Assembly: GCA_002796325.1 (NCBI GenBank)
Contig: PCXA01000001.1
Location: 260,838 to 324,837, forward strand
Source: Deltaproteobacteria bacterium CG11_big_fil_rev_8_21_14_0_20_47_16
Lineage (GTDB): Bacteria; UBA10199; GCA-002796325; 1-14-0-20-47-16
DNA: 64,000 nucleotides
Direction: 5' to 3'
Shown piece by piece: positions 4,892 through 47,296 of the stretch (position 1 is the stretch's first letter; every line of letters begins with the position of its first letter). The position numbers and the translations under genes are program-made. Below the pieces are notes generated by a model. The model did no database searches. It saw only the letters and a program-made list of their open reading frames with translations, and was not told the origin of the DNA.

Positions 4892-4920
4892 AAGCAACTT
4901 CTGCTAAGAATTGCCGATAA
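4892..4920 (+). promoter_or_regulatory. sigma-28/FliA-like promoter motif AGCAACTTCT-N10-GCCGATAA
   Basis: -10-like GCCGATAA at 4913-4920, 17 nt before the ATG at 4938. Same bipartite motif as five other sites in the window. Confidence 0.5.
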
Positions 4921-4937
4921 TAGTATGTGGAGGAATT

Positions 4938-6221
4938 ATGTTAAGTGGTGAATTTGGGGATCCAAGATTATTCTTAGAATTCATGAAGTTAGGTGTTGGT
5001 TTGCTTGCGGATCGGAGTGGTGCCTTCCTACCCAAAAGCCGTACCCGTCCCGTGGTACAGGCCTGGCTTGCGCCACACCTGGATTCCTATAAGCAAGACT
5101 CACGGGCTAAGGCAGAGGGAGCTCCCTTTTTGCGTCGTGCGGAAATTGCGCTTTGCACCGGTACGGTGGGCTTCTTTGCACAATCTGCTGCTGCGTTAAT
5201 CGATTCGGTGGGACAGGCACTCACACAAGAAACGCCTGCAAAAGCATTACTGCGTACGGTTGAAGATATTGCGAATAGCACAGTTCATTTAACAGCTGGT
5301 GGTATCCGACTTGTGGTGCATCCCTCCCAAAATGACTATGACAATATGCTTGCCGCGACAGAAATTGCATGGTCGGTCGGTGCAGCTTACTACACAGCTA
5401 AGTCTGCTGGGAATGGAATGAATCAATTTAAAATGCCTGACTTGTCTCCAATGCCTGTCACCACAGATGGTGTGGCAATGGCTTCTACAGGTTTCTTTGC
5501 TGGTGAGAGACCCAATATATTTGCTGGCCCTTTGCTCATGGCCGCAGATGGCTCTGCTCCAAACGCAGTTGACCTTTTAGGAGAAGAGCTAGAGCACTTG
5601 GATCGCACAACTGTAGGACCATCAACTGAAGTTGGTTCGCATATTGTGGGTCCATGGAAAGTGCGTCTGGAAGCGTTACATGAAAGATTAATCTCATTTT
5701 TGGGATTGCGCCCTGATCAAGCCATTGTTGTTGAAATGGGTCCAGGTCCACAACACCGCATGATCAAGACGCTTGCACCAAGGGTGAGAAAATATATTGC
5801 TGTTGAGCCCCAACTATATTGTGCAAAGGCACTCGAGAGGTTGACTAGCAATTTAGAATGGGGAGATCGTCTCATTGTTTTTGGATCAGAGCTTTGGGAT
5901 ATACCCATAAGGACGTTTGCGGAAGGTGGCGCTGATATTGTGTATGCGTCTCATCCGCATCATGCAACCTCCAACAGTTGGGTGGGAATGGGTGTTGCGC
6001 CCCATAATCCCGTAAAATTAATTGATGCCTTAGGTGAAGGTGTTCGTGATGGCGGATTTTTAGTCATTCAAACAGATGATGCGGCATATGCTGCTGCTGT
6101 AACAAGTGGTGCTTCCCGTTGGCGCCCAGTGTTTGTGAAGCAGATCACCGAACCGTTCATGCCATCCATTCATTTTATAGAAACGGATCATATCATCGTG
6201 CTGCAGCGCATGGCTGAGTAG
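4938..6221 (+). CDS. hypothetical protein with C-terminal Rossmann/methyltransferase-like region
   Basis: RBS GGAGG is 7 nt upstream. VVEMGPGPQ...AVEP resembles SAM-MTase motifs I and II. No confident family assignment. Confidence 0.55.
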   Translation: MLSGEFGDPRLFLEFMKLGVGLLADRSGAFLPKSRTRPVVQAWLAPHLDSYKQDSRAKAEGAPFLRRAEIALCTGTVGFFAQSAAALIDSVGQALTQETPAKALLRTVEDIANSTVHLTAGGIRLVVHPSQNDYDNMLAATEIAWSVGAAYYTAKSAGNGMNQFKMPDLSPMPVTTDGVAMASTGFFAGERPNIFAGPLLMAADGSAPNAVDLLGEELEHLDRTTVGPSTEVGSHIVGPWKVRLEALHERLISFLGLRPDQAIVVEMGPGPQHRMIKTLAPRVRKYIAVEPQLYCAKALERLTSNLEWGDRLIVFGSELWDIPIRTFAEGGADIVYASHPHHATSNSWVGMGVAPHNPVKLIDALGEGVRDGGFLVIQTDDAAYAAAVTSGASRWRPVFVKQITEPFMPSIHFIETDHIIVLQRMAE

Positions 6222-6222
6222 T

Positions 6223-6675
6223 TCACCCTCTTTTACGCACAACCCGTGCCATTTCCCGATTGGTCTCACGCTTCTTGATGTCGTCGCGCTTGTCGTGCGT
6301 CTTTTTGCCTGCACCCAATGCCATTTCAATTTTGACACGACCATTTTTAAAATACATCTTGGTGGGAACGAGGGAGAGGCCCTTTTGTTGAAGTTGACCA
6401 ATGAGGCGCTGCAATTCGCGTTTGTGCACAAGCAGCTTTCGCATGCGCATGGGCTCATGGCCGGTGTAGCTGGCAGCCTTGTATTCACCAATGTGGCAAT
6501 TCACCAACCAGAGCTCACCCTTGTGCAACATGCCATAGGCATCGCCTAGGTTGGCTTTGCCGTCACGCAGTGATTTGACTTCGCTTCCCATAAGCACAAG
6601 CCCCGCTTCAAATTTGTCGCTTAAATGAAAGTTAAATCCGGCCTTGCGGTTCAATGAAATGATTTTTTCAGCCAT
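6223..6675 (-). CDS. smpB: SsrA-binding protein SmpB
   Basis: MAEKIISLNRKAGFNFHL...GSEVKSLR...ELWLVNCHIGEYK...LLVHKRE signature and the KKRD-rich tail. Confidence 0.9.
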   Translation of the reverse strand: MAEKIISLNRKAGFNFHLSDKFEAGLVLMGSEVKSLRDGKANLGDAYGMLHKGELWLVNCHIGEYKAASYTGHEPMRMRKLLVHKRELQRLIGQLQQKGLSLVPTKMYFKNGRVKIEMALGAGKKTHDKRDDIKKRETNREMARVVRKRG

Positions 6676-10305: not shown

Positions 10306-10306
10306 G

Positions 10307-18909: not shown

Positions 18910-19611
18910 TTAGAGAGAAAAGCCTGCCTTTTGAGCATCATTATAGAACATCTGCACAGTCTCTAGAGAGAACTGTGTCAAATCTTTCCCGAATGAGCTG
19001 GTGGCCTTTAGTATGTCCTGAGTAATGGTAATGATATGACAGCCACACTCGTCAGCCTGTATACAGTTGAAAGCTTCGCGTGGGCTGGCCCAAAGTACTT
19101 CACATTTTGGATTTACTTTTGCGATAGCAACGGACTCTTTCATGATTGGCATTGGATCAACGCCGGCGTTAGCAATGCGGCCTCCAAAGATGGAAATAAT
19201 AGAAGGTGTGTCTTTGGCAAGCGCTTCTACAACATGCTTTACCTGTTCAACTGTAAATATTGCAGTTACGTTTAGTGAAATACCCTTGTTGGATAGTCTT
19301 TGAATAATGGGAGCGGTTGACTGACCTTTCGTGTTGGTAACAGGAATTTTGACGTTTACGTTATTTCCCCATGTGGCGATCTTTTCAGCTTGGACTTCCA
19401 TCTCATTTAAATCATCTGAGAAAACTTCGAAAGAGATGGGGAGGTCTGAAATAGTTGCCAATACTTTCTTTGCAAACTCTTCATAGTTTGAAATGCCAGC
19501 TGCCCGCATTAAAGTTGGGTTTGTGGTGAAGCCTTTGACTTTGGGGTTGTTTTTGTAGCAATCAACCATTTGTTCATAGTTGGCACCATCTAAGAAATAT
19601 TTAACTGACAT
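18910..19611 (-). CDS. transaldolase/fructose-6-phosphate aldolase family protein (divergent)
   Basis: GFTTNPTLM motif and TIM-barrel length. Heads the sugar-oxidoreductase cluster. Confidence 0.7.
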   Translation of the reverse strand: MSVKYFLDGANYEQMVDCYKNNPKVKGFTTNPTLMRAAGISNYEEFAKKVLATISDLPISFEVFSDDLNEMEVQAEKIATWGNNVNVKIPVTNTKGQSTAPIIQRLSNKGISLNVTAIFTVEQVKHVVEALAKDTPSIISIFGGRIANAGVDPMPIMKESVAIAKVNPKCEVLWASPREAFNCIQADECGCHIITITQDILKATSSFGKDLTQFSLETVQMFYNDAQKAGFSL

Positions 19612-26986: not shown

Positions 26987-27687
26987 CGGGTTCTGACCCC
27001 AGTGGCTGTGCCGGGATCGAAGCCGATTTGGAAATGATTGCGCGTGCCGGTGTTGCGGCGCGCACAGCGATTACGGCGCTGACGGTGCAGGGTGTTACGT
27101 CAGGGCAAGCGGTGTATGCAACACCAAGAGATGTGCTGCGCGATATTTTGAAGCAGCATTCCCAAAATTTACCAAGCGTGGTGAAGATTGGTATGATTGC
27201 CACGCGCGATAATCTTGAAGTGATCTGTGATTTTTTAGAGCGCTATCCAAAATTGCCAGTGGTTTTAGACCCAGTGTTGCGTGCCACAAGTGGTCTTCAA
27301 TTATTGGAAATGTCTGCAATTCCCCTCTTAAAGGAACGGCTTCTGCCACGTGCAACAATAGTGACACCTAACCTGGACGAAGTTGAAATGTTGTTGGGCA
27401 AACGTCCGGCCACTGTTTCTGAAATGGAAACAGCTGCACGTGAATTGCAACGCGGTACGCAAGTGATGATGGTGAAGGGTGGGCACTTGCAAGGCGATCC
27501 CGTGGATGTCATTTGGGATGGCACGCAAATGAATCACTTATCATCACCACGCATTGGTACAACGTCGCCGCGCGGTACCGGGTGCCGACTGGCATCTGGT
27601 ATTGCCGCACAGATGGCGCTGGGAAAGTCCGCTATTCAAGCATGCGCTGAAGGGAAACAAATGCTGCTGCAATGGATTCGTTATTAA
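26965..27687 (+). CDS. thiD: hydroxymethylpyrimidine/phosphomethylpyrimidine kinase
   Basis: VLTIAGSDPSGCAGIEADL...KIGM motifs. Confidence 0.85.
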   Translation: MVSVLTIAGSDPSGCAGIEADLEMIARAGVAARTAITALTVQGVTSGQAVYATPRDVLRDILKQHSQNLPSVVKIGMIATRDNLEVICDFLERYPKLPVVLDPVLRATSGLQLLEMSAIPLLKERLLPRATIVTPNLDEVEMLLGKRPATVSEMETAARELQRGTQVMMVKGGHLQGDPVDVIWDGTQMNHLSSPRIGTTSPRGTGCRLASGIAAQMALGKSAIQACAEGKQMLLQWIRY

Positions 27688-28880
27688 CCTGGTGGTAAGA
27701 GTGGGTGTAGTTGTATCAATCTATTAAGTAAGTGTTTTTCTCGTGGATGAACCGTCAGTGAGTTAAGATTTTCAGGATCAATGTCAAACCGTGATCGATG
27801 GACTTCACCCCGTTTATAGTAAATAAGTGTCCTTATATAAATAGTTGAGACGCTTGTTCGAGCCACTAGATCAAACAGCTGCTTGTCACTTTCTGAACAG
27901 TCAAGGCACTTAATAATGCGGAATGCTTCATCGAATTGACCCCAGTGAAATGCATCAACGCTGCGTTGTAGTGTTTGGCTAGTAAACGAATCGAGACCAA
28001 TATCAACATTTTCTGGAAGTGGTGCATTCTCCATCCATTGTGCCAATTTTCTTCGACGCTCGCTGTCAGTATTTCCCGCAGCCAGAATATCATTCGATGA
28101 TGGGAATGAAGTATATTGAGGTCTTGGTGGAAGGCATTGGTAAGGGTTGCCGGTAGATAGTCGATATTGAATACGTTTACCCCTTAGTGCAATGGCTGCA
28201 TACTTGCGACTTTGTTTGAGTTCCAAGTCGGGTAGATCGTCAGTGATCTCTGGATTATCCGGGATTGCTGCATTGGCAAGATAGGTAATTTTGTGAGAAC
28301 CTGCTTTTCTAAAGAGCTCAGATGCAGATTTCCAGTAATAGCGAATTTGAGAGTTACAAATGCCGTAAAGACTGCTTGTGACATCAGTTTGTAGTTGAGG
28401 GTCTGATTGAAGAAGTGCAGCGCCAATTAACCCATTTTTTTCTACTGACGCGAGGCCATAGAATAGGAAATTAAGATCGTTGGTCATGTGATGTTGTTTA
28501 TAGAATTCTGCAATTGCAACATGGTGGCGAGTATCCAAAAAGAGTAATAGGCCGTTGGCAATTGGGGGCGGAAGGTATGAAAAGTGTGTGACCCATTCGG
28601 ATTGGCTGTTGCCGTTATCAATTCCCACGCGAAATAAAAGAGCGGCAGCGTTACGTGCAGAATTTGTTGTAGTGATGCGCTGGCCCGCGGTAGGTTTCTG
28701 TCCATTCGGATAACCTTGGAGTAGAGCAATTAATATATGATGTGAGATTTCATTGTTGGATAATATGCCGTCGTGACTTTTATCTAATAGTTGGATTTGA
28801 AGCCATGTTTCACCATCAGCACGTTGCTGATTGGCTTCCTTTTGGAGTGATTTTAGTGAAATTGGCGACATAGTCTCCAT
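27684..28880 (-). CDS. hypothetical protein, paralogue of 30963-31919
   Basis: Shares blocks LLFRVGIDNG/LLWRVSLNDP, FLFYGL/VIYGIP and IRYYWKSASELF/VRQYWCKAEF with the paralogue. No recognisable domain. Confidence 0.6.
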   Translation of the reverse strand: METMSPISLKSLQKEANQQRADGETWLQIQLLDKSHDGILSNNEISHHILIALLQGYPNGQKPTAGQRITTTNSARNAAALLFRVGIDNGNSQSEWVTHFSYLPPPIANGLLLFLDTRHHVAIAEFYKQHHMTNDLNFLFYGLASVEKNGLIGAALLQSDPQLQTDVTSSLYGICNSQIRYYWKSASELFRKAGSHKITYLANAAIPDNPEITDDLPDLELKQSRKYAAIALRGKRIQYRLSTGNPYQCLPPRPQYTSFPSSNDILAAGNTDSERRRKLAQWMENAPLPENVDIGLDSFTSQTLQRSVDAFHWGQFDEAFRIIKCLDCSESDKQLFDLVARTSVSTIYIRTLIYYKRGEVHRSRFDIDPENLNSLTVHPREKHLLNRLIQLHPLLPPG

Positions 28881-28897
28881 ACGCTATACTCATACTA

Positions 28898-28926
28898 TCA
28901 TCGGCAAATAACCAAAAAAGTTGCGG
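28898..28926 (-). promoter_or_regulatory. sigma-28-like motif GCAACTTTTTT-N-GCCGATGA
   Basis: Read in gene direction: cgccGCAACTTTTTTggttatttGCCGATGA, then 33 nt to the ATG at 28880. Confidence 0.5.
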
Positions 28927-30962: not shown

Positions 30963-31919
30963 TTATTCTTTGGGGAGGTCCTTCATGATTCTTCGAAGCA
31001 CTTCGATTCGATTCATCAAAGCTTGATTCTGGGCGTTGGGTGTAATGAATTCGATGCCGTCTTCATCACGAATTGAATCAATCTCATTTGGCACATACTC
31101 ATACTCCCCTTTGCCAATCCGAATGCGCATCATTAGGTAGTGATATTCGATAGTCCTATTTAATTCATTTGCAGTTTCATCGTCATATGCAGGGCTCAAA
31201 TGGATCGCTTGTCGCGCGGCTTCGTAACCGTCTGTATAATACGCTGCAAGTGCATTTCGTAAAAGGGCGTATGCCGTTTTGGATATTTGCATGCTACCGA
31301 TGTTGGGATCGGGAGAATCGACCAGCCACTGGTGAATGCGTGCTTTGAATGAGGCTATATTGTCGACTGCTGCAACACCGTGATTCGCCTTTTCGAGAGG
31401 ACAAATGTTGGGTTGGGTGCCAGTCGGATCAAATTCGGCCTTACACCAGTACTGGCGAACTTGCGGATCTCTGTTGTAACCATTGAGTGCATTATGAATG
31501 GCTGCTTTCATTTTGCGATTATTGAGAAATTGTGCCCCATATAAAAATGACAAGCCTGTTTGAGGAATGCCATAAATCACATGATTAAAATCGTTCGTTC
31601 TCTTGTTAACAAAATAATAATTGGCCAATGTCTTGATGTGTTCAACATCAAAGTAGGCCATGATGCCATTTGCCATATGAAGTGGTAGGAAGGCAAAGCG
31701 GTTCGCCCAATAGTTTAGACTCTTGGGGTCGTTGAGGCTGACCCGCCATAAAAGTGCTGCTGCGCGAGGCGATAATTTTAAAAGGGATTGAAACCCCAAT
31801 TCATCTTCATCAAGTTGGCGGTTATGACCTGCAAGCGTAAAGAGTGTTTGGCGATCCTTGTTGCTGAGGAATCCCCACTCGGCTGTGCGTTGAAGTGTAT
31901 TGAGGTTGATTGGTCTCAT
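30963..31919 (-). CDS. hypothetical protein, paralogue of 27684-28880
   Basis: See the paralogue. Convergent with the secreted-protein gene, 2 nt gap. Confidence 0.6.
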   Translation of the reverse strand: MRPINLNTLQRTAEWGFLSNKDRQTLFTLAGHNRQLDEDELGFQSLLKLSPRAAALLWRVSLNDPKSLNYWANRFAFLPLHMANGIMAYFDVEHIKTLANYYFVNKRTNDFNHVIYGIPQTGLSFLYGAQFLNNRKMKAAIHNALNGYNRDPQVRQYWCKAEFDPTGTQPNICPLEKANHGVAAVDNIASFKARIHQWLVDSPDPNIGSMQISKTAYALLRNALAAYYTDGYEAARQAIHLSPAYDDETANELNRTIEYHYLMMRIRIGKGEYEYVPNEIDSIRDEDGIEFITPNAQNQALMNRIEVLRRIMKDLPKE

Positions 31920-31946
31920 AATCTCCCATTGCTATATCTCTATTAT

Positions 31947-31973
31947 TATCGGGAAATCAGTAAAAAAGTTGCT
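31947..31973 (-). promoter_or_regulatory. sigma-28-like motif AGCAACTTTTTT-N-CCCGATAA
   Basis: Read in gene direction: catAGCAACTTTTTTactgatttCCCGATAA, 27 nt upstream of the ATG at 31919. Confidence 0.5.
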
Positions 31974-31992: not shown

Positions 31993-32844
31993 TTATCCGC
32001 GGGCCAGATGGGAGTAGGCAGTCATTAATTCTTTAGTGACGAGGCCTGGGGCCTTCTTTTTGCAAATTCCGGAAATCTCGGCGATGGGTAGGACTTCGCT
32101 GGTTGATCCTGTTATGAAAATCTCGTCTGCATCTTTAAGCGTTTTGACGGTGAAGTGGGTTTCCTTCCAGGGGATTTCGAGGGTGTCGGCGGCGCCAAGT
32201 ACGGCGCTTCGGGTGACCCCAGGCAAAATGCCATCCGAGATGGGTGGGGTCAAAAGGCGACCATTCTTAATAACGAATAAATTGGATGCACTGCCTTCCA
32301 AAATTTGTCCCGTATCATTGGTGAGTAAGGCGTCAGCGGCTTTAGCGGCATTGGCTTCGCGGCGTGCAAGCATCTTGGTTAAATAGTTGGTGGTTTTGAT
32401 GTTGGAAAGTCGTGGCTGATCGGCAACAACTGTTTCGGCAATCACCAGTTTTGCACCATGTGTATACCACCGTTGTGGTTTTCCTTCGAACGCTTTGCAA
32501 AATGCAACAACTTGCATCTTCATATGCTTGGGCATTTCCATGCCAGTGGATGCACCTACTGCGCTTATCGTGACGCGAATGTAGGCATTAGGTGTTTTGT
32601 TACGGTTGATGAGTTGTTTTAACATGCGGCCAAATGCGTATTCATCGAGAGGCATGTCGAGTCCAAGTGCTGAACAGTTTTCCAACAGACGATAATAGTG
32701 TAGTTTTAGAAATGAAATGTGCCCATCGTACGAACGCAATGTTTCGAAGCATCCTTCACCATACAAGTAGCTGCGATCAAATACGGAAATTTTGGCATCC
32801 TTCTCAGAAACAAAACGACCATTGAGATAAATTACTGTGGGCAT
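31993..32844 (-). CDS. class IV aminotransferase (aminodeoxychorismate lyase/BCAT-like)
   Basis: Fold-type IV PLP enzyme pattern (EGCFET...NLFVIKNGRLLTP); 283 aa. Confidence 0.8.
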   Translation of the reverse strand: MPTVIYLNGRFVSEKDAKISVFDRSYLYGEGCFETLRSYDGHISFLKLHYYRLLENCSALGLDMPLDEYAFGRMLKQLINRNKTPNAYIRVTISAVGASTGMEMPKHMKMQVVAFCKAFEGKPQRWYTHGAKLVIAETVVADQPRLSNIKTTNYLTKMLARREANAAKAADALLTNDTGQILEGSASNLFVIKNGRLLTPPISDGILPGVTRSAVLGAADTLEIPWKETHFTVKTLKDADEIFITGSTSEVLPIAEISGICKKKAPGLVTKELMTAYSHLARG

Positions 32845-36738: not shown

Positions 36739-36766
36739 AGCAACTTTTTGGGCATATATCCGATAG
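36739..36766 (+). promoter_or_regulatory. sigma-28-like motif AGCAACTTTTT-N10-TCCGATAG
   Basis: Same bipartite motif, 22 nt upstream of the ATG at 36789. Confidence 0.45.
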
Positions 36767-36788
36767 TAGCCTATAAGGAGTATCGCCT

Positions 36789-37301
36789 ATGGTTATTATC
36801 CTACCACTATTGTTATTGGCTGCTGCGGGGTGTTCAGCCTCTGTTCGGCGCGAAGAAAAGAAAGCCAAACCTCCAAAGGTAAGTGAAAGTGCTGACCAAA
36901 AAGATTCAGTAACGGTTCAAGAGATGGTTGCACGTTACCAAAAGAAATTTCCTGTTCCAGATTGGGCAAAAAAATCATCATCGCTACTCACGGTTGGCAA
37001 AGGTCACTGTCTTGCAATTCAGTCAACGTCTCAAAACGAGGTTAAGTTGAAAATGATTGTAAGTGCTCAAATGGCACTTGTTAATGCCATTACGGAAAGG
37101 TGCTTTCAGTCACCTGGATATTCCAGTGATCCCATTGGTCGTTTTCAAAGTAAGGCTGTTCATGATGTAGAGTCTTGGAACACCAAGTGGGAGAAAACAA
37201 TGTTGTATGGTCGGATGTGTGAAACGTTTGATCATCAAATTGGTATTGAAGCGTTTGTGGGTCTGCCCCAAAATCTTATTCCGTGCATTATCTTTATATA
37301 G
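36789..37301 (+). CDS. hypothetical lipoprotein
   Basis: Lipobox LLLAAAGC. Confidence 0.6.
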   Translation: MVIILPLLLLAAAGCSASVRREEKKAKPPKVSESADQKDSVTVQEMVARYQKKFPVPDWAKKSSSLLTVGKGHCLAIQSTSQNEVKLKMIVSAQMALVNAITERCFQSPGYSSDPIGRFQSKAVHDVESWNTKWEKTMLYGRMCETFDHQIGIEAFVGLPQNLIPCIIFI

Positions 37302-37318: not shown

Positions 37319-40300
37319 TTACCAAGTTATATTAACAAAGTTAGAAATGTATTCAGCATCACCATCAGGCAAAAACCCAAGTACCCATAGAGATCCATCA
37401 TTCTTGATGAATGAGCTGAGTCCAACACTACTCACGTTGCTCAAGTATCCCGAACCTTCTGGGTTTGGAATCAACTGAGGATCCCAAATCGCAATTGTAT
37501 TGCCAATCCCCAATTCACCAATGGCGTTGCTACCCCAAGTCCAGGCCTGACCATCATTCGTTAGTGCCAAGTAACTGCGTCCGCTGTCACAACCCAGTTG
37601 AACGGCATTGGTGATCTGGTGAACTGGCATGATGATGTTGAGTGGGTTTGCAGTTGATGAAACACCCAAGGGTTGGATGGAAGCGTTGACACCCCAGCCC
37701 AGAACAGTACCATTGCTCAAAAGTACTAATGTATCTGCAGCACCTGTACAGGTATCAATTGCTGTATCAATAGTGCCACCATCATAGCTTGTAATCTGGG
37801 TGGGCTTATTGACGTGGTTTGTATTAGCGAGATTGCCTGCACGATATGCGGAGTTGTTGCCCCAACCAAATAGGGTGCCAGATTCTGTGATGACCATATA
37901 TTGTGCAGAGCCACTGGAGATCTTTTTAACATTGGTGGGCAGGTCAGGTATGAGTGTGGGCGTCGCTGTGCTTGTGAAAGAACCAATGCCCAATTGACCG
38001 TCGCCGTTATATCCGGCTGCATAGCCTGTTGTCACACTGGTCGCAGGATCCTTTTTGATAAATACAGAACTTTCAAAGCCAGCCGATATGGATGTCACAC
38101 CTGACATTTCTCCAGAGCCGCTGGGGTCGATGACTTTCACAGGGTCACAAGTCGGTGTGGAAGATGCGCTGCCGTTACCCAGTTGGCCAGAAGAATTTTT
38201 CCCCCATGCCCACACCGTTCCATCGTCTGCCAGTGCTAGAGAATGGAAACCGCCGCGCGAAATGGCGACAATGTTTTTCAATTTTGTGGGCGCAACTTGT
38301 ACTGGTGAATTGAAGAGAAGCTTCGTGCCAGATTTGTCAGACATTCCCATTTCACATTGATAGTTGCTGCCCCATGCCCACACCGTTCCATCGTCTGCCA
38401 AAAGCAGGTAGCTGTTTTTCCCAGCGTATCCGGTGTTGGCCAATGAGACGCTAATGGCGGCTGCAGGGGGCACTGAAAGCATGTGATAGGGGTTGTAAGT
38501 TGCAAATGAAGCACTGCCATTGCCAAGTTGACCATTCAAATTGTATCCGGCGGTGATAATGCTGCCGTCCGTTTTAAGAATGGCCGTTCCTTGTGCAGAG
38601 CCGACGACAGATGCAATGTCTTTAATGGCACCCATTTTGAGCGGGGACTTCTGGACCGCATTAGCATTGGTGTTGGCAATGCCCAACTGACCAAAGCTAT
38701 CATCTCCCCACATCCATAGGTTGCCATCTGCCTTGATTGTATAGATCTGACGTGAATAACTACCCATGAATGCCTTAACGACATTTTCCATGGCCAAATA
38801 GGGTGTATTTGTAAAGCTGCTGCCAGAGCCAACCGATAGAGATTGATTGCCCGTTTGCCCATATCGATTATCTCCCCACGTGTAGAGTTTTCTATCGTTG
38901 GTCAATGCAGCAAATGTATTGCTGCCGGAAATAATCGTTTTGATGTCAGTCAGAGGGTTTCCCGATACCATTAACTGAACCGGGAGGCTGCGAATTGTTG
39001 TGGTACCATCACCAATTTGTCCTGAGTTATTGTTGCCCCACAACCATGCAGTGGTTGTGGTTGGATCCTGTGGGTCTGTTTGTGTAAGGACAATTGCTGT
39101 GCCAACACCCGCTGCAATTTGTTTGATGGTACCACTCAGGCCCTGTACTTGTACGGGTGTTGGATTGGGGTTAACGCTCGATGTGGTGCCATTGCCCAGG
39201 TTCCCCTGCAAATTTAGGCCCCACGCCCAGAGTGTGCCATCGGATTTAAGTGCATAGACTGTATATGAGGCTGCTGCAATTTGAGCGACATCGCTTATTG
39301 TAGTAATTTGCGTTGGTACCAACCGAAGGCTATTAGAGCCATCTCCCTGTTGGCCGAATCGATTATCTCCCCATCCCCACACAGTGCCATCATTTTTAAG
39401 AGCGAAAGTGGATGTTGCACCCTGTGCAACATCTTTGACATCGCTGATGTTGATTCGAACAGGGAGGCTGCGAATTGTTGTGGTACCATCACCAATTTGA
39501 CCAGAATGATTTTTGCCCCATCCCCAGAGCGTTCCATTTTCTTTGAGTGCATAGAAGGTGTAAGGCCCAGTAATGACTTGAACCACTTTTGAACTATTTG
39601 TCTTGAATGTGTAGGAATAATTGTGCGTCATGGCGTTGCCAGCACTGTCTTTGATGCCTGTCGTTGCGACAACCAAATACGCTTCACTATCCAATAGTGA
39701 ACTGTCTGGCGTAAAGGTAATGCTGGTGCCGCTGACGTCTAATGCGATGCTACCGCTTACGCTGTTGCCAAGGCTGTCTGTAACGGTCAATGTTTGTGTG
39801 TTGGCGGTATCTGCCGCAATCGCCTCGCTGAATTGAATTTGGATGGTTGATGTAAGTGGTGTGGCCGCATTGCCAAGTGCGGGTGATGTACTCGTTACAT
39901 AAGGTGGTGTTAAATCCGTTGTGCTCGGGATGGGATTCCCAATGACGAAGCTCCATATATAGGGTGCCGCCAATGCGTTTCCAGCAAGATCGGTTACGGT
40001 TGCTTTAAGTGAAGCGGTATATATTTCAGCCTGCTTTAATGATGATGTGGGTGTGAAAATAATATTAAGTTGCAGTGCATCCAGGCTCACCGTGCCGGCA
40101 ATGGCGGCACCTGCGCTGTCGACAACTGAAATGCTGTCGGTCGCAATTGAATTGATATCCATGGATTCACTAAATTGAACCGAAATGGAGGAACTTGCGA
40201 GTGCGCCCTTGCTTCCGAGGGTAGGGGTGGTGGAGGTAATGTAGGGTGCCACCTTGTCGCTTTTATTGGAAGTGGATGCGGTGTTTGAAGAGTTACCGCT

Positions 40301-40435
40301 ATTGCCTGTACTGTCTGTGGTGCTCAATGGAGTATCAGACGCGCCGTCCGCGCCAGAAGGGGAAGAGGAGCACCCACAGAAGAGGAGTGCTGTACAGAGG
40401 CCGAGTGTGATGGAGTTTTGTATAATTTTAAACAT
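37319..40435 (-). CDS. large lipoprotein with Ig-like (Big) domains and RCC1/alpha-tubulin-suppressor-like beta-propeller repeats
   Basis: Lipobox LLFCGC, Ser/Thr linker, Ig-like repeats (SESMD..., IQFSEAI...), and more than ten WGxNxxGQLG repeats. Confidence 0.8.
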   Translation of the reverse strand: MFKIIQNSITLGLCTALLFCGCSSSPSGADGASDTPLSTTDSTGNSGNSSNTASTSNKSDKVAPYITSTTPTLGSKGALASSSISVQFSESMDINSIATDSISVVDSAGAAIAGTVSLDALQLNIIFTPTSSLKQAEIYTASLKATVTDLAGNALAAPYIWSFVIGNPIPSTTDLTPPYVTSTSPALGNAATPLTSTIQIQFSEAIAADTANTQTLTVTDSLGNSVSGSIALDVSGTSITFTPDSSLLDSEAYLVVATTGIKDSAGNAMTHNYSYTFKTNSSKVVQVITGPYTFYALKENGTLWGWGKNHSGQIGDGTTTIRSLPVRINISDVKDVAQGATSTFALKNDGTVWGWGDNRFGQQGDGSNSLRLVPTQITTISDVAQIAAASYTVYALKSDGTLWAWGLNLQGNLGNGTTSSVNPNPTPVQVQGLSGTIKQIAAGVGTAIVLTQTDPQDPTTTTAWLWGNNNSGQIGDGTTTIRSLPVQLMVSGNPLTDIKTIISGSNTFAALTNDRKLYTWGDNRYGQTGNQSLSVGSGSSFTNTPYLAMENVVKAFMGSYSRQIYTIKADGNLWMWGDDSFGQLGIANTNANAVQKSPLKMGAIKDIASVVGSAQGTAILKTDGSIITAGYNLNGQLGNGSASFATYNPYHMLSVPPAAAISVSLANTGYAGKNSYLLLADDGTVWAWGSNYQCEMGMSDKSGTKLLFNSPVQVAPTKLKNIVAISRGGFHSLALADDGTVWAWGKNSSGQLGNGSASSTPTCDPVKVIDPSGSGEMSGVTSISAGFESSVFIKKDPATSVTTGYAAGYNGDGQLGIGSFTSTATPTLIPDLPTNVKKISSGSAQYMVITESGTLFGWGNNSAYRAGNLANTNHVNKPTQITSYDGGTIDTAIDTCTGAADTLVLLSNGTVLGWGVNASIQPLGVSSTANPLNIIMPVHQITNAVQLGCDSGRSYLALTNDGQAWTWGSNAIGELGIGNTIAIWDPQLIPNPEGSGYLSNVSSVGLSSFIKNDGSLWVLGFLPDGDAEYISNFVNITW

Positions 40436-40595: not shown

Positions 40596-41198
40596 TTAGT
40601 CGCGTTTGAGGCTAAATCGCTCGGTGGTTCGACAGTAATCTAAGCCCCCCATGCGGCCAATAGCATCCAATAGGTCAGAGTCCACCTTACCCTCTTTCAG
40701 AATGGAATCACTGAGGTGCATGGCCACAATTTCACCAATCACAATGTTGCCGGCGCTGGGGCCCTCTGCCAGGTGAATCACTTTGAGCACTTTACACTCC
40801 AAAGCAGCAGGTGCATTTTTGACGCGGGGTGGTTGAACGACGTGACTTTTTTCAGATGCAATGCCCACTTCTGAAAATTCACTCACTTCCGCTGGGAAGT
40901 GATGTGCACTGCCGATCATTTTTTGTCGCTGCGCAAATGACACCACGTTGCAGACATATTCCCCTGTTTCCATCGCGTTGCGTAGAGAGTCTTTGTAGCT
41001 ACCGTCTTCGTGATTGGCTGGGCAAAATAAATGTGCTGGTGGGCGAGATGAAACGGCGTTGGCAAAGCTGTACGGTGCCAAGTTGGTGACGCCATCTTTT
41101 GAAATGGTGGAGACCCATGCAATGGGACGTGGCACAATGATGCGTAAGAGATGTTTGTAGAAGTCGCCGATGTCTTTCGGGTCGGGCGTTAAGATCAT
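40596..41198 (-). CDS. flavin reductase-like (FMN-binding split barrel) protein
   Basis: VPRPIAWVST...TNLAPYSF pattern. Confidence 0.75.
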   Translation of the reverse strand: MILTPDPKDIGDFYKHLLRIIVPRPIAWVSTISKDGVTNLAPYSFANAVSSRPPAHLFCPANHEDGSYKDSLRNAMETGEYVCNVVSFAQRQKMIGSAHHFPAEVSEFSEVGIASEKSHVVQPPRVKNAPAALECKVLKVIHLAEGPSAGNIVIGEIVAMHLSDSILKEGKVDSDLLDAIGRMGGLDYCRTTERFSLKRD

Positions 41199-41200
41199 GG

Positions 41201-42292
41201 TTAAATCCCAAATGAGGTACCCACAGCCATGGCGGCACGGACCTCATCCCCTTTGGGGCTTACGCGGTGAAGTTTATGAACCGCTTGCGCCAATGGAATC
41301 GTGATGATGTTGCCATGCTGCACTGCCACCATGCGTCCTGATTGTCCGGAAGCCAGTGTTTCAACTGCTTTGACGCCAAATTGTGTGGCAATCCATCGAT
41401 CAAATGCAGTGGGGGTGCCGCCACGTTGGAGATGCCCTAGAACAGTAACGCGACTTTCATAACCTGCAGTTTCCAGTTGGTTGGCCACATATTTTCCAAT
41501 ACCACCCAGGCGGATGGGGTCCGGTGACTTTTTGTCGATATGATCCACAACCATCTTTCCTTTTTTGGGATGCGCACCTTCGGCAACCACCACAATACTG
41601 AAGCGACGATTATGGTGGAGACGTCGCTCGATGGTCGCAGCGACACATTTGGGATCATACGGAATTTCCGGAATTAAAATCACATCACCGCCGCCCGCAA
41701 TGCCAGAGCGCAGCGCAATCCAACCCGCATAACGGCCCATGACTTCGACTACCATGACCCGGTGATGGGCTTCGGCTGTTGTGTGCAGACGATCGATTGA
41801 GTCGGTGGCAATGGTGAGTGCAGAATTAAATCCAATGGTGACATCAGTGCCACGTAAATCGTTATCAATTGTTTTGGGAATGGCAACGACAGGTACACCC
41901 AGCTTGTGAAGTTTTGCAGCAGATGTAAGTGTTCCATCGCCGCCAATGATCACCAGGCCATCCAGGCCGTGGCGTTTGATGGTTTGTAGCAAGTCTTTCA
42001 CATGGTTGCTGGTCTTTTTGCTGTTGTGAAGATGGTAGTGAAAGGGGTCGGCACGATTGGATGTGCCCAGCATTGTGCCTCCGCGCGAAATGATGCCTGA
42101 GACGCGATCTGATGTGAGCGGTGTCCAGCGATCTTCTACAAGGCCTTCGTAGCCATCTAAAAAGCCAAACACCTCCCATCGATGTTCGTTGATAGCCGCC
42201 CGTGTCACTGCGCGGATGGCAGCGTTGAGTCCTGGGCAGTCGCCGCCACCGGTGATGAGTCCAATGCGTTGAATTTTATGTTTGCGAGTCAT
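41201..42292 (-). CDS. pfkA: 6-phosphofructokinase
   Basis: GLITGGGDCPGLNAAIRAV and IIGGDGT motifs. Confidence 0.9.
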   Translation of the reverse strand: MTRKHKIQRIGLITGGGDCPGLNAAIRAVTRAAINEHRWEVFGFLDGYEGLVEDRWTPLTSDRVSGIISRGGTMLGTSNRADPFHYHLHNSKKTSNHVKDLLQTIKRHGLDGLVIIGGDGTLTSAAKLHKLGVPVVAIPKTIDNDLRGTDVTIGFNSALTIATDSIDRLHTTAEAHHRVMVVEVMGRYAGWIALRSGIAGGGDVILIPEIPYDPKCVAATIERRLHHNRRFSIVVVAEGAHPKKGKMVVDHIDKKSPDPIRLGGIGKYVANQLETAGYESRVTVLGHLQRGGTPTAFDRWIATQFGVKAVETLASGQSGRMVAVQHGNIITIPLAQAVHKLHRVSPKGDEVRAAMAVGTSFGI

Positions 42293-42298
42293 AGAGTT

Positions 42299-43432
42299 TT
42301 ATAGCGCAGGTGCGCCCCAATGTTCAGGATTGAGATGTTCTAGTTCTGGTACAACAAACTGGCCATCTTTGCGAATCAACTTATCATCGAAGTAAAGCTC
42401 ACCACCGCCATAATCTTTGCGTTGGATTAATACAAGATCCCAGTGAACAGCGGAGTCGTTGCCGTTGGATGCGTCGTCGTAACATTTGCCGGGTGTGAAA
42501 TGGATGCTGCCGGCAATTTTTTCATCAAACAAGATGTCCTTCATGGGTTTGCGAATCCATGGATGGAATCCAATCGCAAACTCACCCACGTAACGTGCGC
42601 CCTCATCGGTATCGAAGATTTTGTTAAGCGCATCATTATCACCATCGCATTTGGCTTCTACAATTTTGCCATCACGGAATGTGAGGCAGACATTGTTGTA
42701 AAGTCCACCCATGTAAGGTGATGGTGTGTTGTATTGAATGGTGCCATTAACAGAGTTGCGAACTGGTGCTGTAAATACTTCGCCATCTGGAATGTTTACT
42801 TTTCCATCGCACGGAATTGCAGGGATTCCCTTAATTGAAAAACGCAAGTCAGTGCCAGGCGCGGTAATGCGAACCGTGTCTGTTTTTTCCATTAAATCCT
42901 TTAATGGGCGCATTGCTTTTTGGAACGCTTTGTAATCCAAAAGACAGGTTTTAAAATAAAAGTCAGTGAATGCTTCAACTGAAGTTTCGGCGAGTTGCGC
43001 CATGGAGTTGTTGGGGTAGCGCATGATGCACCAACGGGTTTTTTTGACCCGCTGTTCCATGTGAACCGGTGTCATGTAATGTTGCATGTACCACTTGCGA
43101 CGTTCAGCGGGGACATCATTCATTTCAAAAATATTGTCTTGGCCTCGAATCGCAACATAGGCTTGTACACGCGCCATTTCTTCGCGATGCAATTTGCCCA
43201 ACTCAATCATTTGCTGTTCTGTGCCGTTTAATAAAATTTGCCGCATGAAGCTGTCTTCATTGTGCCACCACACGGGTGTAGCACCAATTTTTGCGGCCCC
43301 GCCAATGAGTGCGGATACGAGAGGTTGGGGTGCATCACCTGCCCAGTGAATCATGAAGCGTTCGCCAGGTTTGAGTTCGATGGAATAGTTGAGAATTAAA
43401 TCAGCTAACTGTTGCACGTGTGGATTTGTCAT
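42299..43432 (-). CDS. M29 family aminopeptidase (AmpS/PepS-like)
   Basis: Length and conserved blocks of thermophilic metalloprotease M29. Confidence 0.8.
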   Translation of the reverse strand: MTNPHVQQLADLILNYSIELKPGERFMIHWAGDAPQPLVSALIGGAAKIGATPVWWHNEDSFMRQILLNGTEQQMIELGKLHREEMARVQAYVAIRGQDNIFEMNDVPAERRKWYMQHYMTPVHMEQRVKKTRWCIMRYPNNSMAQLAETSVEAFTDFYFKTCLLDYKAFQKAMRPLKDLMEKTDTVRITAPGTDLRFSIKGIPAIPCDGKVNIPDGEVFTAPVRNSVNGTIQYNTPSPYMGGLYNNVCLTFRDGKIVEAKCDGDNDALNKIFDTDEGARYVGEFAIGFHPWIRKPMKDILFDEKIAGSIHFTPGKCYDDASNGNDSAVHWDLVLIQRKDYGGGELYFDDKLIRKDGQFVVPELEHLNPEHWGAPAL

Positions 43433-43441
43433 GCCCCAGCT

Positions 43442-44038
43442 CTACTTTTGCTCGGGGAGTGATGCAAGGTATTTTGCGCGCAGTCGTTTGAAATGCGCAG
43501 TGCTGGTGTGAATGCGTTTGTGTCGTAGTTTGATCAGATAGTTTTGTACGGCCCAGATATTCCCTTTGGCGAATCGCCAGTCGGTGCGTGGGATGTCATC
43601 GAGACTTGCGGTCCCATAACCGGTGATGCGTCCTGTTTTATCAATGAACGGCGTATAGTAACTCATGACCAAGTGATACAAACTGCGGTAGCGTGCCGGG
43701 CGCCCATAGAGACCTGTGCAGCGGGAAAAACCGATAGTGCCGTAGCGGCCATTTTTCTTATAAAGGAAGAGCACATGATCCAGGTGGTCCTTTGAGGTAA
43801 TATCCAAAACCGTTGGCGGATAGCCGTGCTCGCCTAAGATAGTGGCCGCAATAAAGACAGCTTCGAGGCAGTGGGCGCTTTGGTGTTTGAGGGATTGGCG
43901 AAAAGAACGGAGCGTTTCGCCGCGGGATTCCTTGTTATAGCGAAAATGGGAAATAATGAATTTCTGGACCTGCGCGGGTGTCTTAAGGTGACGGATTAGG
44001 CGTTTTTCGGTGGGGGTAAAGGGGTGGTTAAACCGCAT
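43442..44038 (-). CDS. hypothetical protein (possible Cys/His hydrolase fold)
   Basis: ORF only. Conserved-looking SAHCLEAVFIAATIL. Translationally coupled to the upstream small ORF. Confidence 0.45.
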   Translation of the reverse strand: MRFNHPFTPTEKRLIRHLKTPAQVQKFIISHFRYNKESRGETLRSFRQSLKHQSAHCLEAVFIAATILGEHGYPPTVLDITSKDHLDHVLFLYKKNGRYGTIGFSRCTGLYGRPARYRSLYHLVMSYYTPFIDKTGRITGYGTASLDDIPRTDWRFAKGNIWAVQNYLIKLRHKRIHTSTAHFKRLRAKYLASLPEQK

Positions 44039-44041
44039 GGC

Positions 44042-44221
44042 TTAGGCCACTTGAATCTCAATAACTGTCGGGGGTTCACTTTTTGAACTATCTGATTTTT
44101 CAGGAGATTTTCTTGGTTTTTCGGAGTGTGGCAGGTCCCGAATGGCCGGTAGCCGTTCCCCTTCGGGCTGGGTCTTTTCTTGGCGCTTATCCTGGATCTT
44201 TTTAATCATGCTTGGATCCAT
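44042..44221 (-). CDS. small Lys/Glu-rich protein (59 aa)
   Basis: RBS GGAGGGG 5 nt upstream, a sigma-28-like motif upstream, and stop-start coupling to the downstream gene. No homology recognised. Confidence 0.35.
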   Translation of the reverse strand: MDPSMIKKIQDKRQEKTQPEGERLPAIRDLPHSEKPRKSPEKSDSSKSEPPTVIEIQVA

Positions 44222-44252
44222 AACCCCTCCAAGTCTCTAGTTTCTATTATTA

Positions 44253-44280
44253 TTATCGGCAAAACAACTGAAAAGTTGCT
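44253..44280 (-). promoter_or_regulatory. sigma-28-like motif AAGCAACTTTT-N10-GCCGATAA
   Basis: Exact GCCGATAA box, 32 nt upstream of the ATG at 44221. Confidence 0.5.
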
Positions 44281-44333
44281 TGGGGGCTATTTAATTTTGA
44301 GGATGTTGGCAGATCGTTTGCGAACATCTCTGG

Positions 44334-44891: not shown

Positions 44892-45011
44892 TGTACTCCT
44901 TGGGGTGCTAGGCAAAGGCCAAAGAGAAGGTAATGATACTACATAATAACCAGAGAATAAATAGGCGAATCCCGTACAAAATTGCCACGCAATGCGACGC
45001 AACAGGATTTT

Positions 45012-45064
45012 TATCCCCCAAATAACAGAAACGGGAAACCAAATGGCTTCCCGTTTCTGTTATG
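45012..45064. repeat. 53-bp hairpin repeat, copy 1 (atcccccaaataacagaaacgggaaaccaaaTggcttcccgtttctgttatgc)
   Basis: Matches copy 2 at 52/53 positions. Contains a 14-bp inverted repeat, aacagaaacgggaa / ttcccgtttctgtt. Confidence 0.8.
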
Positions 45065-45107
45065 CGGACGTTAGCGGATAATTTTCGAATCTATAATTGT
45101 GGCCCCT

Positions 45108-46046
45108 TCATAACGTCGCCCGACCTTCAATAATTGTGGGATATTCTAGAGTGGGTAACAGCTCAGCTCGCATTCGTGTGGTATCACCATAATAGGACAC
45201 TCGCCCAATATCGATAAAGTCTTTGGTAAGGGGGGCGCGGGTGTTGAAACACTTGGAAAACAATTCAAAAAAATTGGCAGCCATATAAATCAGGCCGAGT
45301 GGCATTTTCCACGGTGGTCGAACGCCCCACTGCTGGCAGGCAATTGATAGGAATTCTTGCAAGGTAATCTTGCCCTCGTCACCCAGGTGATAAATTCCAT
45401 GAATGTTCGGTTTTGAGATCGCGGCTGCTACTGCCCTGCAAAAGTCAATTTTGGATATCAGATGGATCTGAGTAGGTTGCCGCCACACGCCCAGCATATG
45501 GTGTTTGGCGAACCAGTGGGCCGCATCGACCATCAAAACACCCTTTCCATAGACCATGCCCACACGCAGGACAATTGAGCTTGGCATTTGCGATAGAAGG
45601 TATTTTTCCTCTGCGAGTCGGGTTTGCGCATGAACGGATATCGGATGGCCATCTAGTGTGCCCCTGGCCGGATGATCAAAGCTGGTAGGGCCTTCGACGT
45701 GGGGAAAACTGATCAGGATAATCTTTTTCACACCGCATTCTTTGGCAACATCCACCAGATTCTGAAAATATTTTACATTGGTCGTTGGTAAAAATGTTTC
45801 GGGATTGGCCTTAAAAAGTACGCCTGCAAAATGCACAATGGTATCTACCCCATCCACGGCATTGCGCAGTGTATTGGGTTGGGCAAGATCCGCCTTAACT
45901 ACCTCAGTTCGTCCATCGACTTTAAGTGTAGATAACACATCCTTCTGATGGACCATCAGCCGCAAAGGAACGTCCGAGTGTGTCAGTAAATGAGCCGCCA
46001 ACAGTGCCCCTAAATTGCCTGCAGCTCCAGTAATGAGTGTTGTCAT
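45108..46046 (-). CDS. NAD-dependent epimerase/dehydratase family protein
   Basis: MTTLITGAAGNLGALLAAHLL Rossmann motif and the extended SDR pattern. Confidence 0.8.
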   Translation of the reverse strand: MTTLITGAAGNLGALLAAHLLTHSDVPLRLMVHQKDVLSTLKVDGRTEVVKADLAQPNTLRNAVDGVDTIVHFAGVLFKANPETFLPTTNVKYFQNLVDVAKECGVKKIILISFPHVEGPTSFDHPARGTLDGHPISVHAQTRLAEEKYLLSQMPSSIVLRVGMVYGKGVLMVDAAHWFAKHHMLGVWRQPTQIHLISKIDFCRAVAAAISKPNIHGIYHLGDEGKITLQEFLSIACQQWGVRPPWKMPLGLIYMAANFFELFSKCFNTRAPLTKDFIDIGRVSYYGDTTRMRAELLPTLEYPTIIEGRATL

Positions 46047-46243
46047 GCTGAACCCTCTGTATATCAACATTAAATGACAGACAAGATGGATCCTTCACTT
46101 CCCTCCGGGTGTCATATCCTGATAACTCGCTTCCCACTTAAACTTTCTGTCTCAATAAACACAAAACCCCCGTCCTTGACTCACCAGAACGAGGGTTCTA
46201 CCCGTTGTGCGTTTGCGAATCTTGTTTCAGAACAAACGGTTTG

Positions 46244-47227
46244 TTAAAGTGTTGGACCGCCGATTTGATAGTGCAGAAAATACATCATAGAGCTCCAAGT
46301 TTCTTCCATCATGCGACATGTGGCTGCAATACTGGGTTGCGTTTGAATGCCCAGGTTTTGAGCAGTATAAGATGCCACTTCGCGGGTACGTTCGTGTTGA
46401 TCTTCTATGCCCTGTTGTAGAATCGCCGCTTGATCCTTCTTCTTTAGATAGTGGACTTGTTCCAAAACGCAAGCGCGCACGAAACCATTAGAATCATTCA
46501 TGCCACGTTGGGCGATAGCTAAGCGGTCTTCAGGTTTCAGGTACTTGAGTTGTCGAACTGCGGTGCTGCGAGTTGCCGCATTCTCAGAGTCTAGCCCTTG
46601 TTGCACGAATGCCCGTCGGTCTTCCAGTTTTAAGCAAAACGTTTGTGCTGCCGCCACTTCTGTAATTCTGCCATCCCAGCTGGCAGTGAATTTTGTGCCC
46701 TCTTCAAGAAATTCGAGGTGGTTCGCAATTGGCAAGTATTGCACTGCAGTTATTGCGGATATCATGAGTTCAACACTATAAGGATGATCAAACCGATTCT
46801 GGGTAACTGCTGCTTTATAATAGTCAAATATCTGTCGAATAACTGTGATGCGTTCTGTAATTGGTAAATATTGTATGTTCTGCCCAAGCATATAAAGATG
46901 ACTAGGGGTACAGAAAAGAAGTGCCGAATCGAGAGTGGATGAGTTTGCACAAATTGCTTCAGCTGGACGATCCTCGTGCTTAGCTATGCGAAATAATTGT
47001 TTGGCTTCAGCTTGCGAAAAGAGCTTTTGGAGTTGCGCCACGCTTGGCCACCGCTCACCTGTAAGGGCTGGCGATATTTCTTCATAAGTTAGAAAGCCGT
47101 CACCGTTTTTGTCGGCGACAAGGAGTGATTCCAGCCACGCCCGTTCATCGGCAGATATCAAAGGATTGTTGAGCCATTTCGCAGCGGAAGCAATATCTAC
47201 GCTATCACTATTAAGTGGTTTAACCAT
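46244..47227 (-). CDS. HEAT-repeat protein
   Basis: C-terminal HEAT/PBS-lyase-like repeats (DSENAATRSTAVRQL..., DSNGFVRACVLEQV...). Confidence 0.6.
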   Translation of the reverse strand: MVKPLNSDSVDIASAAKWLNNPLISADERAWLESLLVADKNGDGFLTYEEISPALTGERWPSVAQLQKLFSQAEAKQLFRIAKHEDRPAEAICANSSTLDSALLFCTPSHLYMLGQNIQYLPITERITVIRQIFDYYKAAVTQNRFDHPYSVELMISAITAVQYLPIANHLEFLEEGTKFTASWDGRITEVAAAQTFCLKLEDRRAFVQQGLDSENAATRSTAVRQLKYLKPEDRLAIAQRGMNDSNGFVRACVLEQVHYLKKKDQAAILQQGIEDQHERTREVASYTAQNLGIQTQPSIAATCRMMEETWSSMMYFLHYQIGGPTL

Positions 47228-47268
47228 AAGAACAGCCTCCTAGGGCGGTATTTGAACTACTCATAATG

Positions 47269-47296
47269 TTATCGGCTATCCATTAAAAAGGTTGCT
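47269..47296 (-). promoter_or_regulatory. sigma-28-like motif AGCAACCTTTTT-N-GCCGATAA
   Basis: Exact GCCGATAA box, 41 nt upstream of the ATG at 47227. Confidence 0.5.

Follow-up and report, generated by a model that had tools for sequence, protein, structure and literature searches.

The DNA analysed here, referred to below as the window, is a stretch of 64,000 nt (positions 260,838 to 324,837) of contig PCXA01000001.1 from Deltaproteobacteria bacterium CG11_big_fil_rev_8_21_14_0_20_47_16 (assembly GCA_002796325.1), which GTDB places in UBA10199. It carries six copies of a bipartite motif with the consensus AGCAACTTTT-N10-GCCGATAA-TA, all of them intergenic and oriented with the next gene (Table 1). 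Five of the six first genes behind these sites encode proteins without a Pfam domain. The first of them, t1, is monocistronic and convergent with smpB; sites 2 and 3 precede the distant paralogues t2 and t3 (33% identity over 110 aa); and the five genes behind site 5 probably form an operon, judging by their spacing. About 50 other genes of the window have no such motif, among them smpB, panBC, tsaD, ksgA, thiDE, dnaX, recR, the dap genes and genes for transporters. Pfam annotation of the ~55 window genes revealed neither a sigma factor gene nor a flagellar gene.

Most of the target genes have hardly any relatives. A word-seeded search of 5.8 billion proteins returned no homologue of t1 other than itself, a profile search with t2/t3 identified a single homologue, and t6, compared with 1.84 billion representative proteins, gave repeat-level matches only and none over its full length. 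These three target families have essentially no full-length homologues.

In gene orientation, the six sites share the sequence AGCAAC(T/C)TT(T/C)-N10-(G/C/T)CCGAT(A/G)(A/G)-(T/C)A, in which CCGAT is invariant. The original prediction, made from the letters of this DNA, had reported the motif six times, always in gene orientation and ending 17-41 nt before a start codon. All six sites were recovered where it had placed them, and the distances between box end and start codon are 17, 17, 26, 22, 31 and 41 nt (sites 1-6). Its description of the downstream box as exact or with one mismatch to GCCGATAA holds for five sites (three exact, two with one mismatch), but site 4 (TCCGATAG) has two.

A search of the window with AACTTTT-N10-GCCGATAA gave 10 matches with up to three mismatches, compared to 2.3 expected, and only the six reported sites with up to two. 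A 37-nt position weight matrix (PWM) built from these sites scored them at 37-46 bits, and the best other of 128,000 positions at 13.8 bits; in a leave-one-out analysis the scores were 15-33 bits, site 4 being the weakest (15.4 bits). When the spacer was masked, the resulting 30-nt PWM gave 32.2-35.5 bits for the six sites and 15.1 for the best other position. In 50 shuffles the maximum obtained with this matrix averaged 12.8 and never exceeded 18.5. GCCGATAA by itself is not enriched in the window (3 matches versus 1.5 expected): the signal resides in the bipartite motif, not in GCCGATAA alone.

A multiple alignment of the sites restricted identity to the two boxes, with an unconserved spacer and unconserved flanks; therefore the motif is not a dispersed repeat. 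A GGAG-type Shine-Dalgarno sequence is present between each site and its start codon. By our estimate ~2% of window positions would fit such a placement, and the placement of six sites out of six is therefore not due to chance. It should be noted that sites 2 and 3, which share 5' untranslated region (5'UTR) sequence in addition to preceding paralogues, are related by descent, and thus represent one event in a total of five independent sites rather than six.

When 17 kb of additional flank was scanned with the six-site PWM, a seventh site (AGCAACTTTTTTCAAAATCTGCCGATAAGA, 32.8 bits) was found ~3.7 kb past the right end of the window (L001, 5134-5163, minus strand), between rho and an open reading frame (ORF) of 195 aa. 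This ORF has no Pfam domain and starts with a GTG located at the 8th nt past the box; its mRNA would therefore probably be leaderless. The genome thus carries 7 sites in ~81 kb, or about one per 12 kb. GCAAC at -35 is invariant in six of the seven, while the seventh deviates only by C for T in the T run. The spacing between the boxes is identical in all seven sites of the genome; it was fixed in the pattern that retrieved more than 240 sites elsewhere.

Table 1. Predicted promoter sites, target genes and neighbouring features of the window
Feature	Position	Strand	Remarks
ssrA (transfer-messenger RNA)	4497-4833	-	Full length; found by Rfam (112 bits), missed by ARAGORN
Putative promoter, site 1	4893-4922	+	AGCAACTTCT-N10-GCCGATAA-TA; 33.4 bits; between ssrA and t1
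Predicted transcription start, site 1	~4927-4928	+	
Target gene t1	4938-6221	+	427 aa; orphan; no Pfam domain
Target gene t2	27684-28880	-	398 aa; orphan; distant paralogue of t3
Predicted transcription start, site 2	~28890-28891	-	
Putative promoter, site 2	28896-28925	-	CGCAACTTTT-N10-GCCGATGA-TA
Target gene t3	30963-31919	-	318 aa; orphan; paralogue of t2
Putative promoter, site 3	31944-31973	-	AGCAACTTTT-N10-CCCGATAA-TA; directly after class IV aminotransferase gene (31993-32844)
Putative promoter, site 4	36739-36768	+	AGCAACTTTT-N10-TCCGATAG-TA; two -10 mismatches
Target gene t4	36789-37301	+	170-aa predicted lipoprotein; LLLAAAGC lipobox; no Pfam domain
Probable five-gene operon, site 5	40596-44221	-	Gene gaps of 2-9 nt
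Flavin reductase, site-5 operon	40596-41198	-	
6-phosphofructokinase, site-5 operon	41201-42292	-	
M29 aminopeptidase, site-5 operon	42299-43432	-	
Vasohibin-like protein, site-5 operon	43442-44038	-	PF14822
59-aa ORF, site-5 operon	44042-44221	-	First gene
Putative promoter, site 5	44251-44280	-	AGCAACTTTT-N10-GCCGATAA-TA; exact match to consensus
Target gene t6	46244-47227	-	327 aa; HEAT-repeat region and EF-hand-like motif
Putative promoter, site 6	47267-47296	-	AGCAACCTTT-N10-GCCGATAA-CA

The distribution of the motif was analysed by scanning one genome per species (596 Gb) with the exact 18-base pattern AGCAACTTTT-N10-GCCGATAA. At least 117 stretches were retrieved, compared to ~17 chance matches by our calculation. 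About 100 of the matches listed belong to uncultured genomes with deltaproteobacterial labels ('Deltaproteobacteria/Myxococcales'), and the number of the remaining ones (from Bacillota, archaea, cyanobacteria and further groups) is close to that expected by chance. Among the matches listed, JAUSII01, JAHFSU01 and SBBF01 carry at least 10 exact sites each, and MGRG01, CAIPVD01 and JACPAJ01 five to seven each. A metagenome scan with the same pattern added at least 119 further stretches. When 824 kb of these genome loci were scanned with the window-derived PWM, 29 extra sites that do not match the pattern exactly were detected, compared to ~0.8 in shuffles, and GCAAC is kept in most of these as well. 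The motif is present in genomes of ~40% to 62% G+C. The only homologue of t2/t3 (45% protein identity, L120) retains it as GGCAACTTTT-N10-GCCGATAC, 30 nt before the ATG and in the same synteny as site 3, with a gene for a class IV aminotransferase preceding it. The motif characterizes the lineage as a whole.

The closest matches to the Rho protein encoded beside the seventh site (80-87% identity) all come from uncultured 'Deltaproteobacteria', 'Myxococcales' or unclassified bacteria. One of these relatives, the closed genome CP064976 (Rho 80% identical), is assigned to p__UBA10199;o__2-02-FULL-50-16 by GTDB, to Myxococcota 'bacteriap25' by SILVA and to Oligoflexales '0319-6G20' by MiDAS, and it is the only one with a GTDB placement in the literature. 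In three relatives, the seventh site is not conserved at the orthologous position beside rho. An origin of the window in Legionellales or Chlamydiae, which the eukaryote-like domains (RCC1, vasohibin, Arf-like, HEAT/EF-hand) and the DAP aminotransferase pathway had suggested, was rejected in view of these Rho relatives and of the deposition of the proteins under Deltaproteobacteria bacterium CG11 (locus tags COV45_). A literature search on transcription in UBA10199 found nothing, and the name of the source genome appeared in no relevant paper found.

Three observations concern individual loci retrieved in these scans. The genome named 'Nitrospira sp. isolate Bin_29_2_1' (SBBF01; loci L005, L011, L019, L032, L040, L061, L069, L075, L078 and L110) has at least 12 exact sites with the typical downstream architecture, and its taxonomic label is probably wrong. 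At L220, an identical promoter and 5'UTR are duplicated before two adjacent genes (683-710 and 1304-1331). At L232 (1180-1500) the search pattern lies inside a 33-nt tandem repeat, probably a coding repeat of an unrelated organism, and was counted as a chance match.

A set of 226 non-redundant sites was used to locate start codons relative to the motif. For long ORFs, the first start codon is most frequent at the 8th nt past the box, and for 46 of 175 it is located within nt 3-10, which points to leaderless mRNAs if transcription begins where predicted below; a second, broad peak at nt 18-28 would correspond to short leaders. In 121 sites, A/T-rich sequence precedes AGCAAC, T predominates at the 7th base past the box, and 79% have a purine at the 8th. 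In Bdellovibrio bacteriovorus, attack-phase transcripts were shown by 5'-end sequencing to start 7-8 nt after GCCGATAA, many of them at the start codon (PMC3627812, Table S2), and in the fliC promoter of Pseudomonas aeruginosa the transcription start is the 8th nt past the box (PMC12784957). The start-codon peak thus coincides with the position at which sigma-28 transcription starts in Pseudomonas and Bdellovibrio, and we infer that the exact start lies 7-8 nt past the -10 box here as well. The placement of the sites, the start-codon peak and the retention of the motif in the orthologue all support the claim of the original prediction that the motif acts as a promoter. There is little doubt, in our view, that the six window sites and the seventh are promoters of one regulon governed by an alternative sigma factor.

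The -10 consensus of sigma-28 is GCCGATAA (PMC12784957, PMC8325347). The complete consensus in Escherichia coli is TAAAGTTT-N11-GCCGATAA, and the P. aeruginosa fliC promoter reads (-36)TCTAAAG(-30)...(-15)GCCGATAA(-8) (PMC12784957). When the motif is set in this register, it has GCAACTTT at -35, N11, and GCCGATAA at -10. The -10 box is therefore the one expected of sigma-28, and the spacing of 11 bp between the octamers (TAAAG ending 14 nt before GCCGATAA) is found in all seven sites of the genome. The upstream box AACTTT had been placed 12 nt from GCCGATAA in the original prediction; the gap is in fact 11 nt, the canonical sigma-28 spacing. Its description of both boxes as sigma-28-like is borne out for the -10 box and the spacing, but it underplayed the difference at -35, where the sites have GCAAC and not TAAAG.

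The set of genes controlled by the motif was characterized using the first genes downstream of exact sites, in two sets of 99 and 101. Only a minority of the encoded proteins have any Pfam domain; the families identified include PAAR, phage-sheath-like, FGE-sulfatase, MopE-type repeats, M23 peptidase, TPR and HEAT. No flagellar Pfam family was found among the 99 and 101 proteins, and a separate scan of the 79 downstream proteins of up to 200 aa found no FlgM, FlaG or FliS. The targets that define flagellar class III genes (flagellin, motAB, flgM, flgKL, chemotaxis genes) are thus not represented. Both in the window and in these ~200 motif-proximal genes of related genomes and metagenomes, the controlled genes are non-flagellar, lineage-specific hypotheticals, as had been claimed for the window.

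The PAAR genes (L070, L085, L188 and L238) encode 106-aa proteins, and the phage-tail-sheath-like genes are located at L087, L109 and L191. In these loci, which come from high-GC genomes labelled 'Myxococcales' or 'Polyangia', the motif stands directly in front of the gene, which suggests that a contractile injection system is part of the regulon.

Taken with the anatomy of the boxes, this makes it very likely that the sites act as promoters for a regulon of the sigma-28 type that has been separated from flagella. The corresponding proposal of the original prediction holds with respect to the promoter, the -10 box, the spacing and the non-flagellar targets, and needs amendment at the -35 box. 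The sigma factor reading the motif probably belongs to the FliA/WhiG (sigma-28) family, an assignment favoured because the long -10 is identical to the hallmark of this family, the spacing is canonical, the presumed start point agrees and the regulon is large.

Several findings weigh against this assignment. TAAA(GTTT), the sigma-28 -35 sequence, is absent from all sites, which have GCAAC(T/C)TT(T/C) instead; only AA and TTT are common to the -35 of the motif and TAAAGTTT, and the deviation from the consensus, which affects three of eight positions, is itself highly conserved. The motif is therefore a variant rather than a member of the canonical sigma-28 promoter class. The window, ~17 kb of flanks and ~1.5 Mb of motif-bearing loci (8-21 kb each) yielded no gene for FliA/WhiG, FlgM, flagellin, MotA or FliP; the tblastn queries used on the loci (FliA, FliC, MotA and FliP) were approximate E. 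coli sequences. In these loci FliC, FliP and MotA gave no match, and FliA retrieved two RpoH-like genes only (L096 and L141). Finally, the rho-centred loci of three relatives, an unbiased sample, contain 3, 1 and 0 sites per 21 kb.

The RpoH-like genes are unlikely candidates for the sigma factor of the regulon, being located upstream of the motif rather than behind it. They occur on unrelated contigs (L096 6434-7855 and L141 778-2295) in a conserved order: recG, lipA, glpX, the RpoH-like sigma gene, an exact motif and a small secreted or membrane ORF.

The deviating -35 box is also an argument that a different alternative sigma factor is involved, either of the extracytoplasmic function (ECF, group 4) type or of an undescribed group 3, with a -10 preference that has converged on CCGATAA. 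The generic ECF promoter has 'AAC' at -35, followed after ~16 nt by 'CGT' at -10, and GCAAC-N16-CGA, with its AAC core and a CG dinucleotide ~16 nt downstream, suits this general layout. The lack of TAAA in all sites, of flagellar genes and FlgM among the ~200 downstream genes, and of FliA in any DNA examined would agree with such a factor. ECF -10 boxes, however, are short CGT-type motifs, whereas the -10 found here is long (8-10 nt, CCGATAA(TA)) and matches the sigma-28 hallmark including its ATAA part. ECF regulons are, moreover, usually small and include the operon of the sigma factor itself. The regulon described here is far larger, with a site every ~12 kb; none of the ~200 downstream proteins was found to have a domain of sigma or anti-sigma factors, so that no autoregulated sigma/anti-sigma genes stand behind the promoter, and the sole sigma genes near the sites are the RpoH-like ones upstream of the motif. 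We consider this explanation unlikely, although it is the most serious competitor of the sigma-28 assignment.

It is considerably less probable that the boxes are a binding site of an activator or repressor superimposed on conventional sigma-70 promoters whose -10 would be GATAAT. Hexamers resembling GATAAT do occur within CCGATAAT in five of the six window sites, and one weak sigma-70-like match overlaps site 5, but just 43% of 121 sites have a T after GATAA, at the position that corresponds to the near-invariant T(-7) of sigma-70 promoters, and the hexamer 17 bp upstream, AGCAAC, agrees with TTGACA at one of six positions. Sigma-70-like matches in the region number 7, compared to 9.5 in shuffles. 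An asymmetric, strictly oriented motif at a fixed distance from leaderless starts is a core promoter rather than an operator. As for the view that the motif is a dispersed element (similar to a repetitive extragenic palindrome or a miniature inverted-repeat transposable element, or a duplication remnant) or arose by chance, and takes no part in transcription, the common 5'UTR sequence and the origin of sites 2 and 3 by gene duplication are what could be cited for it. The unconserved spacer and flanks in the alignment, PWM scores far above those of shuffles, strict orientation and distance to start codons, and the persistence of the motif from ~40% to 62% G+C effectively refute it, and we regard it as having next to no chance of being correct.

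Of the known systems, the one closest to the sigma-28-type regulon proposed here is the attack-phase regulon of Bdellovibrio, whose FliA (sigma-28, Bd3318) is essential and accounts for some two thirds of the promoters of that phase (Karunker et al. 2013, PMC3627812; Avidan et al. 2017, PMC5430801). In both, a large share of genes, mostly encoding hypothetical, surface or secreted proteins, is served by a bipartite promoter whose -10 box is CCGATA(A); both hosts belong to former 'deltaproteobacterial' lineages; and transcription starting 7-8 nt after the box, with many leaderless mRNAs, would be common to the two. The sigma factor and the starts were demonstrated experimentally in Bdellovibrio, whereas those proposed here are predictions from sequence. 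The -35 of Bdellovibrio is TTAAG/TAAAG-like and loosely conserved, in contrast to the nearly invariant AGCAACTTTT, and its regulon includes flagellins, fliL and chemotaxis genes, in contrast to none of ~200 targets here. The motif does not fall within the Bdellovibrio regulon proper, that of a Bdellovibrio-like predator with TTAAG-N16-CCGATA promoters: the relatives identified through Rho are uncultured, and CP064976 is placed in UBA10199.

The flagellar class III promoters read by sigma-28 in E. coli, Salmonella and Pseudomonas (PMC12784957) share with the motif the -10 octamer, the 11-bp spacing, the TTT half of the -35 and the implied start at the 8th nt after the box. They differ in the TAAAG half of the -35, replaced here by GCAAC, and in controlling flagellar and chemotaxis genes; the site density also differs, E. 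coli sigma-28 having a few dozen sites per genome as opposed to ~1 per 12 kb. Precedents for a wholly non-flagellar regulon tied to a life-cycle or surface-structure switch exist: the non-flagellated Legionella oakridgensis keeps functional FliA and FlgM (PMC5655016), WhiG controls sporulation or pili in Streptomyces and Rubrobacter (PMC8325347), and Chlamydia is cited in PMC3627812 as having kept sigma-28 without flagella. Those regulons are small (~10-20 promoters) with a canonical TAAA, unlike the apparently large one with an altered -35 described here.

The recruitment of sigma-28 for non-flagellar genes is thus already known from Bdellovibrio, Chlamydia, Legionella and actinobacteria. Three features appear to be new: a -35 box that is re-tuned and highly conserved, the apparently complete lack of flagellar targets in ~200 genes, and the occurrence in an uncultured lineage of phylum rank, whose co-regulated orphan genes the motif seems to tag. 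Since the concept is established, the advance would be incremental unless the sigma factor proves unusual.

In the proposed mechanism, RNA polymerase with a sigma factor of the sigma-28 (FliA/WhiG) family would bind GCAACTTT at -35 and (G)CCGATAA at -10, 11 bp apart, and begin transcription 7-8 nt past the -10 box, yielding 5' leaders of ~10-35 nt in the window and many leaderless transcripts elsewhere. The regulon, with no detectable flagellar link, would drive many lineage-specific genes, often encoding secreted or eukaryote-like proteins, and a single sigma/anti-sigma switch would turn on the whole programme together. Such a programme could plausibly serve a dispersal, attack or host-contact state with phase-specific expression. 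A broader version of this model is more speculative: in UBA10199 and its neighbours ('bacteriap25'/'0319-6G20'), a sigma-28-derived factor, re-tuned at -35 from TAAAG to AGCAAC and fully uncoupled from flagella, might be the master regulator of hundreds of orphan, secreted, PAAR/contractile-injection and eukaryote-like genes. We regard this as doubtful at present; if true, it would reveal a developmental or attack/host-contact switch in this poorly known group.

The motif offers a handle on gene regulation in a barely known group that requires nothing but sequence. A single information-rich promoter would mark perhaps a few hundred co-regulated genes per genome, mostly orphans but also PAAR and sheath genes, M23 peptidases and eukaryote-like proteins. 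Scanning for it would list candidate 'attack/contact-phase' genes and, because many transcripts appear to be leaderless, would correct gene starts. The altered -35 could also serve as a natural case of co-evolution between a sigma-28-type factor and the promoter it reads.

Some further features of the target genes deserve mention. The 5'UTRs of t2 (28881-28897), t3 (31920-31945) and their homologue (L120 224-253) share TATAG...GGAGAyTATG, with proteins that are merely 33-45% identical, and this shared sequence may be an additional post-transcriptional signal. The first ORF behind site 5 resembles by eye two other ORFs of ~60 aa behind exact motifs (L064 140-322 and L084 243-422, both on the minus strand), with N-terminal ...VIEKLxK... 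and C-terminal ...VIEIDL; BLASTP gave E = 2.6, so their homology is unproven and no claim is made. The mean third-position G+C content of the motif-driven window genes is 0.39, compared to 0.47 ± 0.05 in other genes, a difference too weak to indicate horizontal transfer of the targets.

The window also contains a cluster of genes for eukaryote-like proteins (37319-40435, 43442-44038 and 46244-47227 on the minus strand, and 56599-57192 on the plus strand), which hints at an association with eukaryotes. They comprise a 1038-aa protein with nine RCC1 repeats and Big_5, the vasohibin-like protein, a weakly Arf/Ras-like GTPase and the HEAT/EF-hand-like protein; of these, only the vasohibin-like and HEAT genes stand behind the motif. 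Other features of the window are a sigma-54-type activator with AAA+ and HTH_8 domains and no receiver or sensor domain (25234-26367, plus strand), and two genes of the transaldolase/FSA family (18910-19611 and 57936-58580, both on the minus strand).

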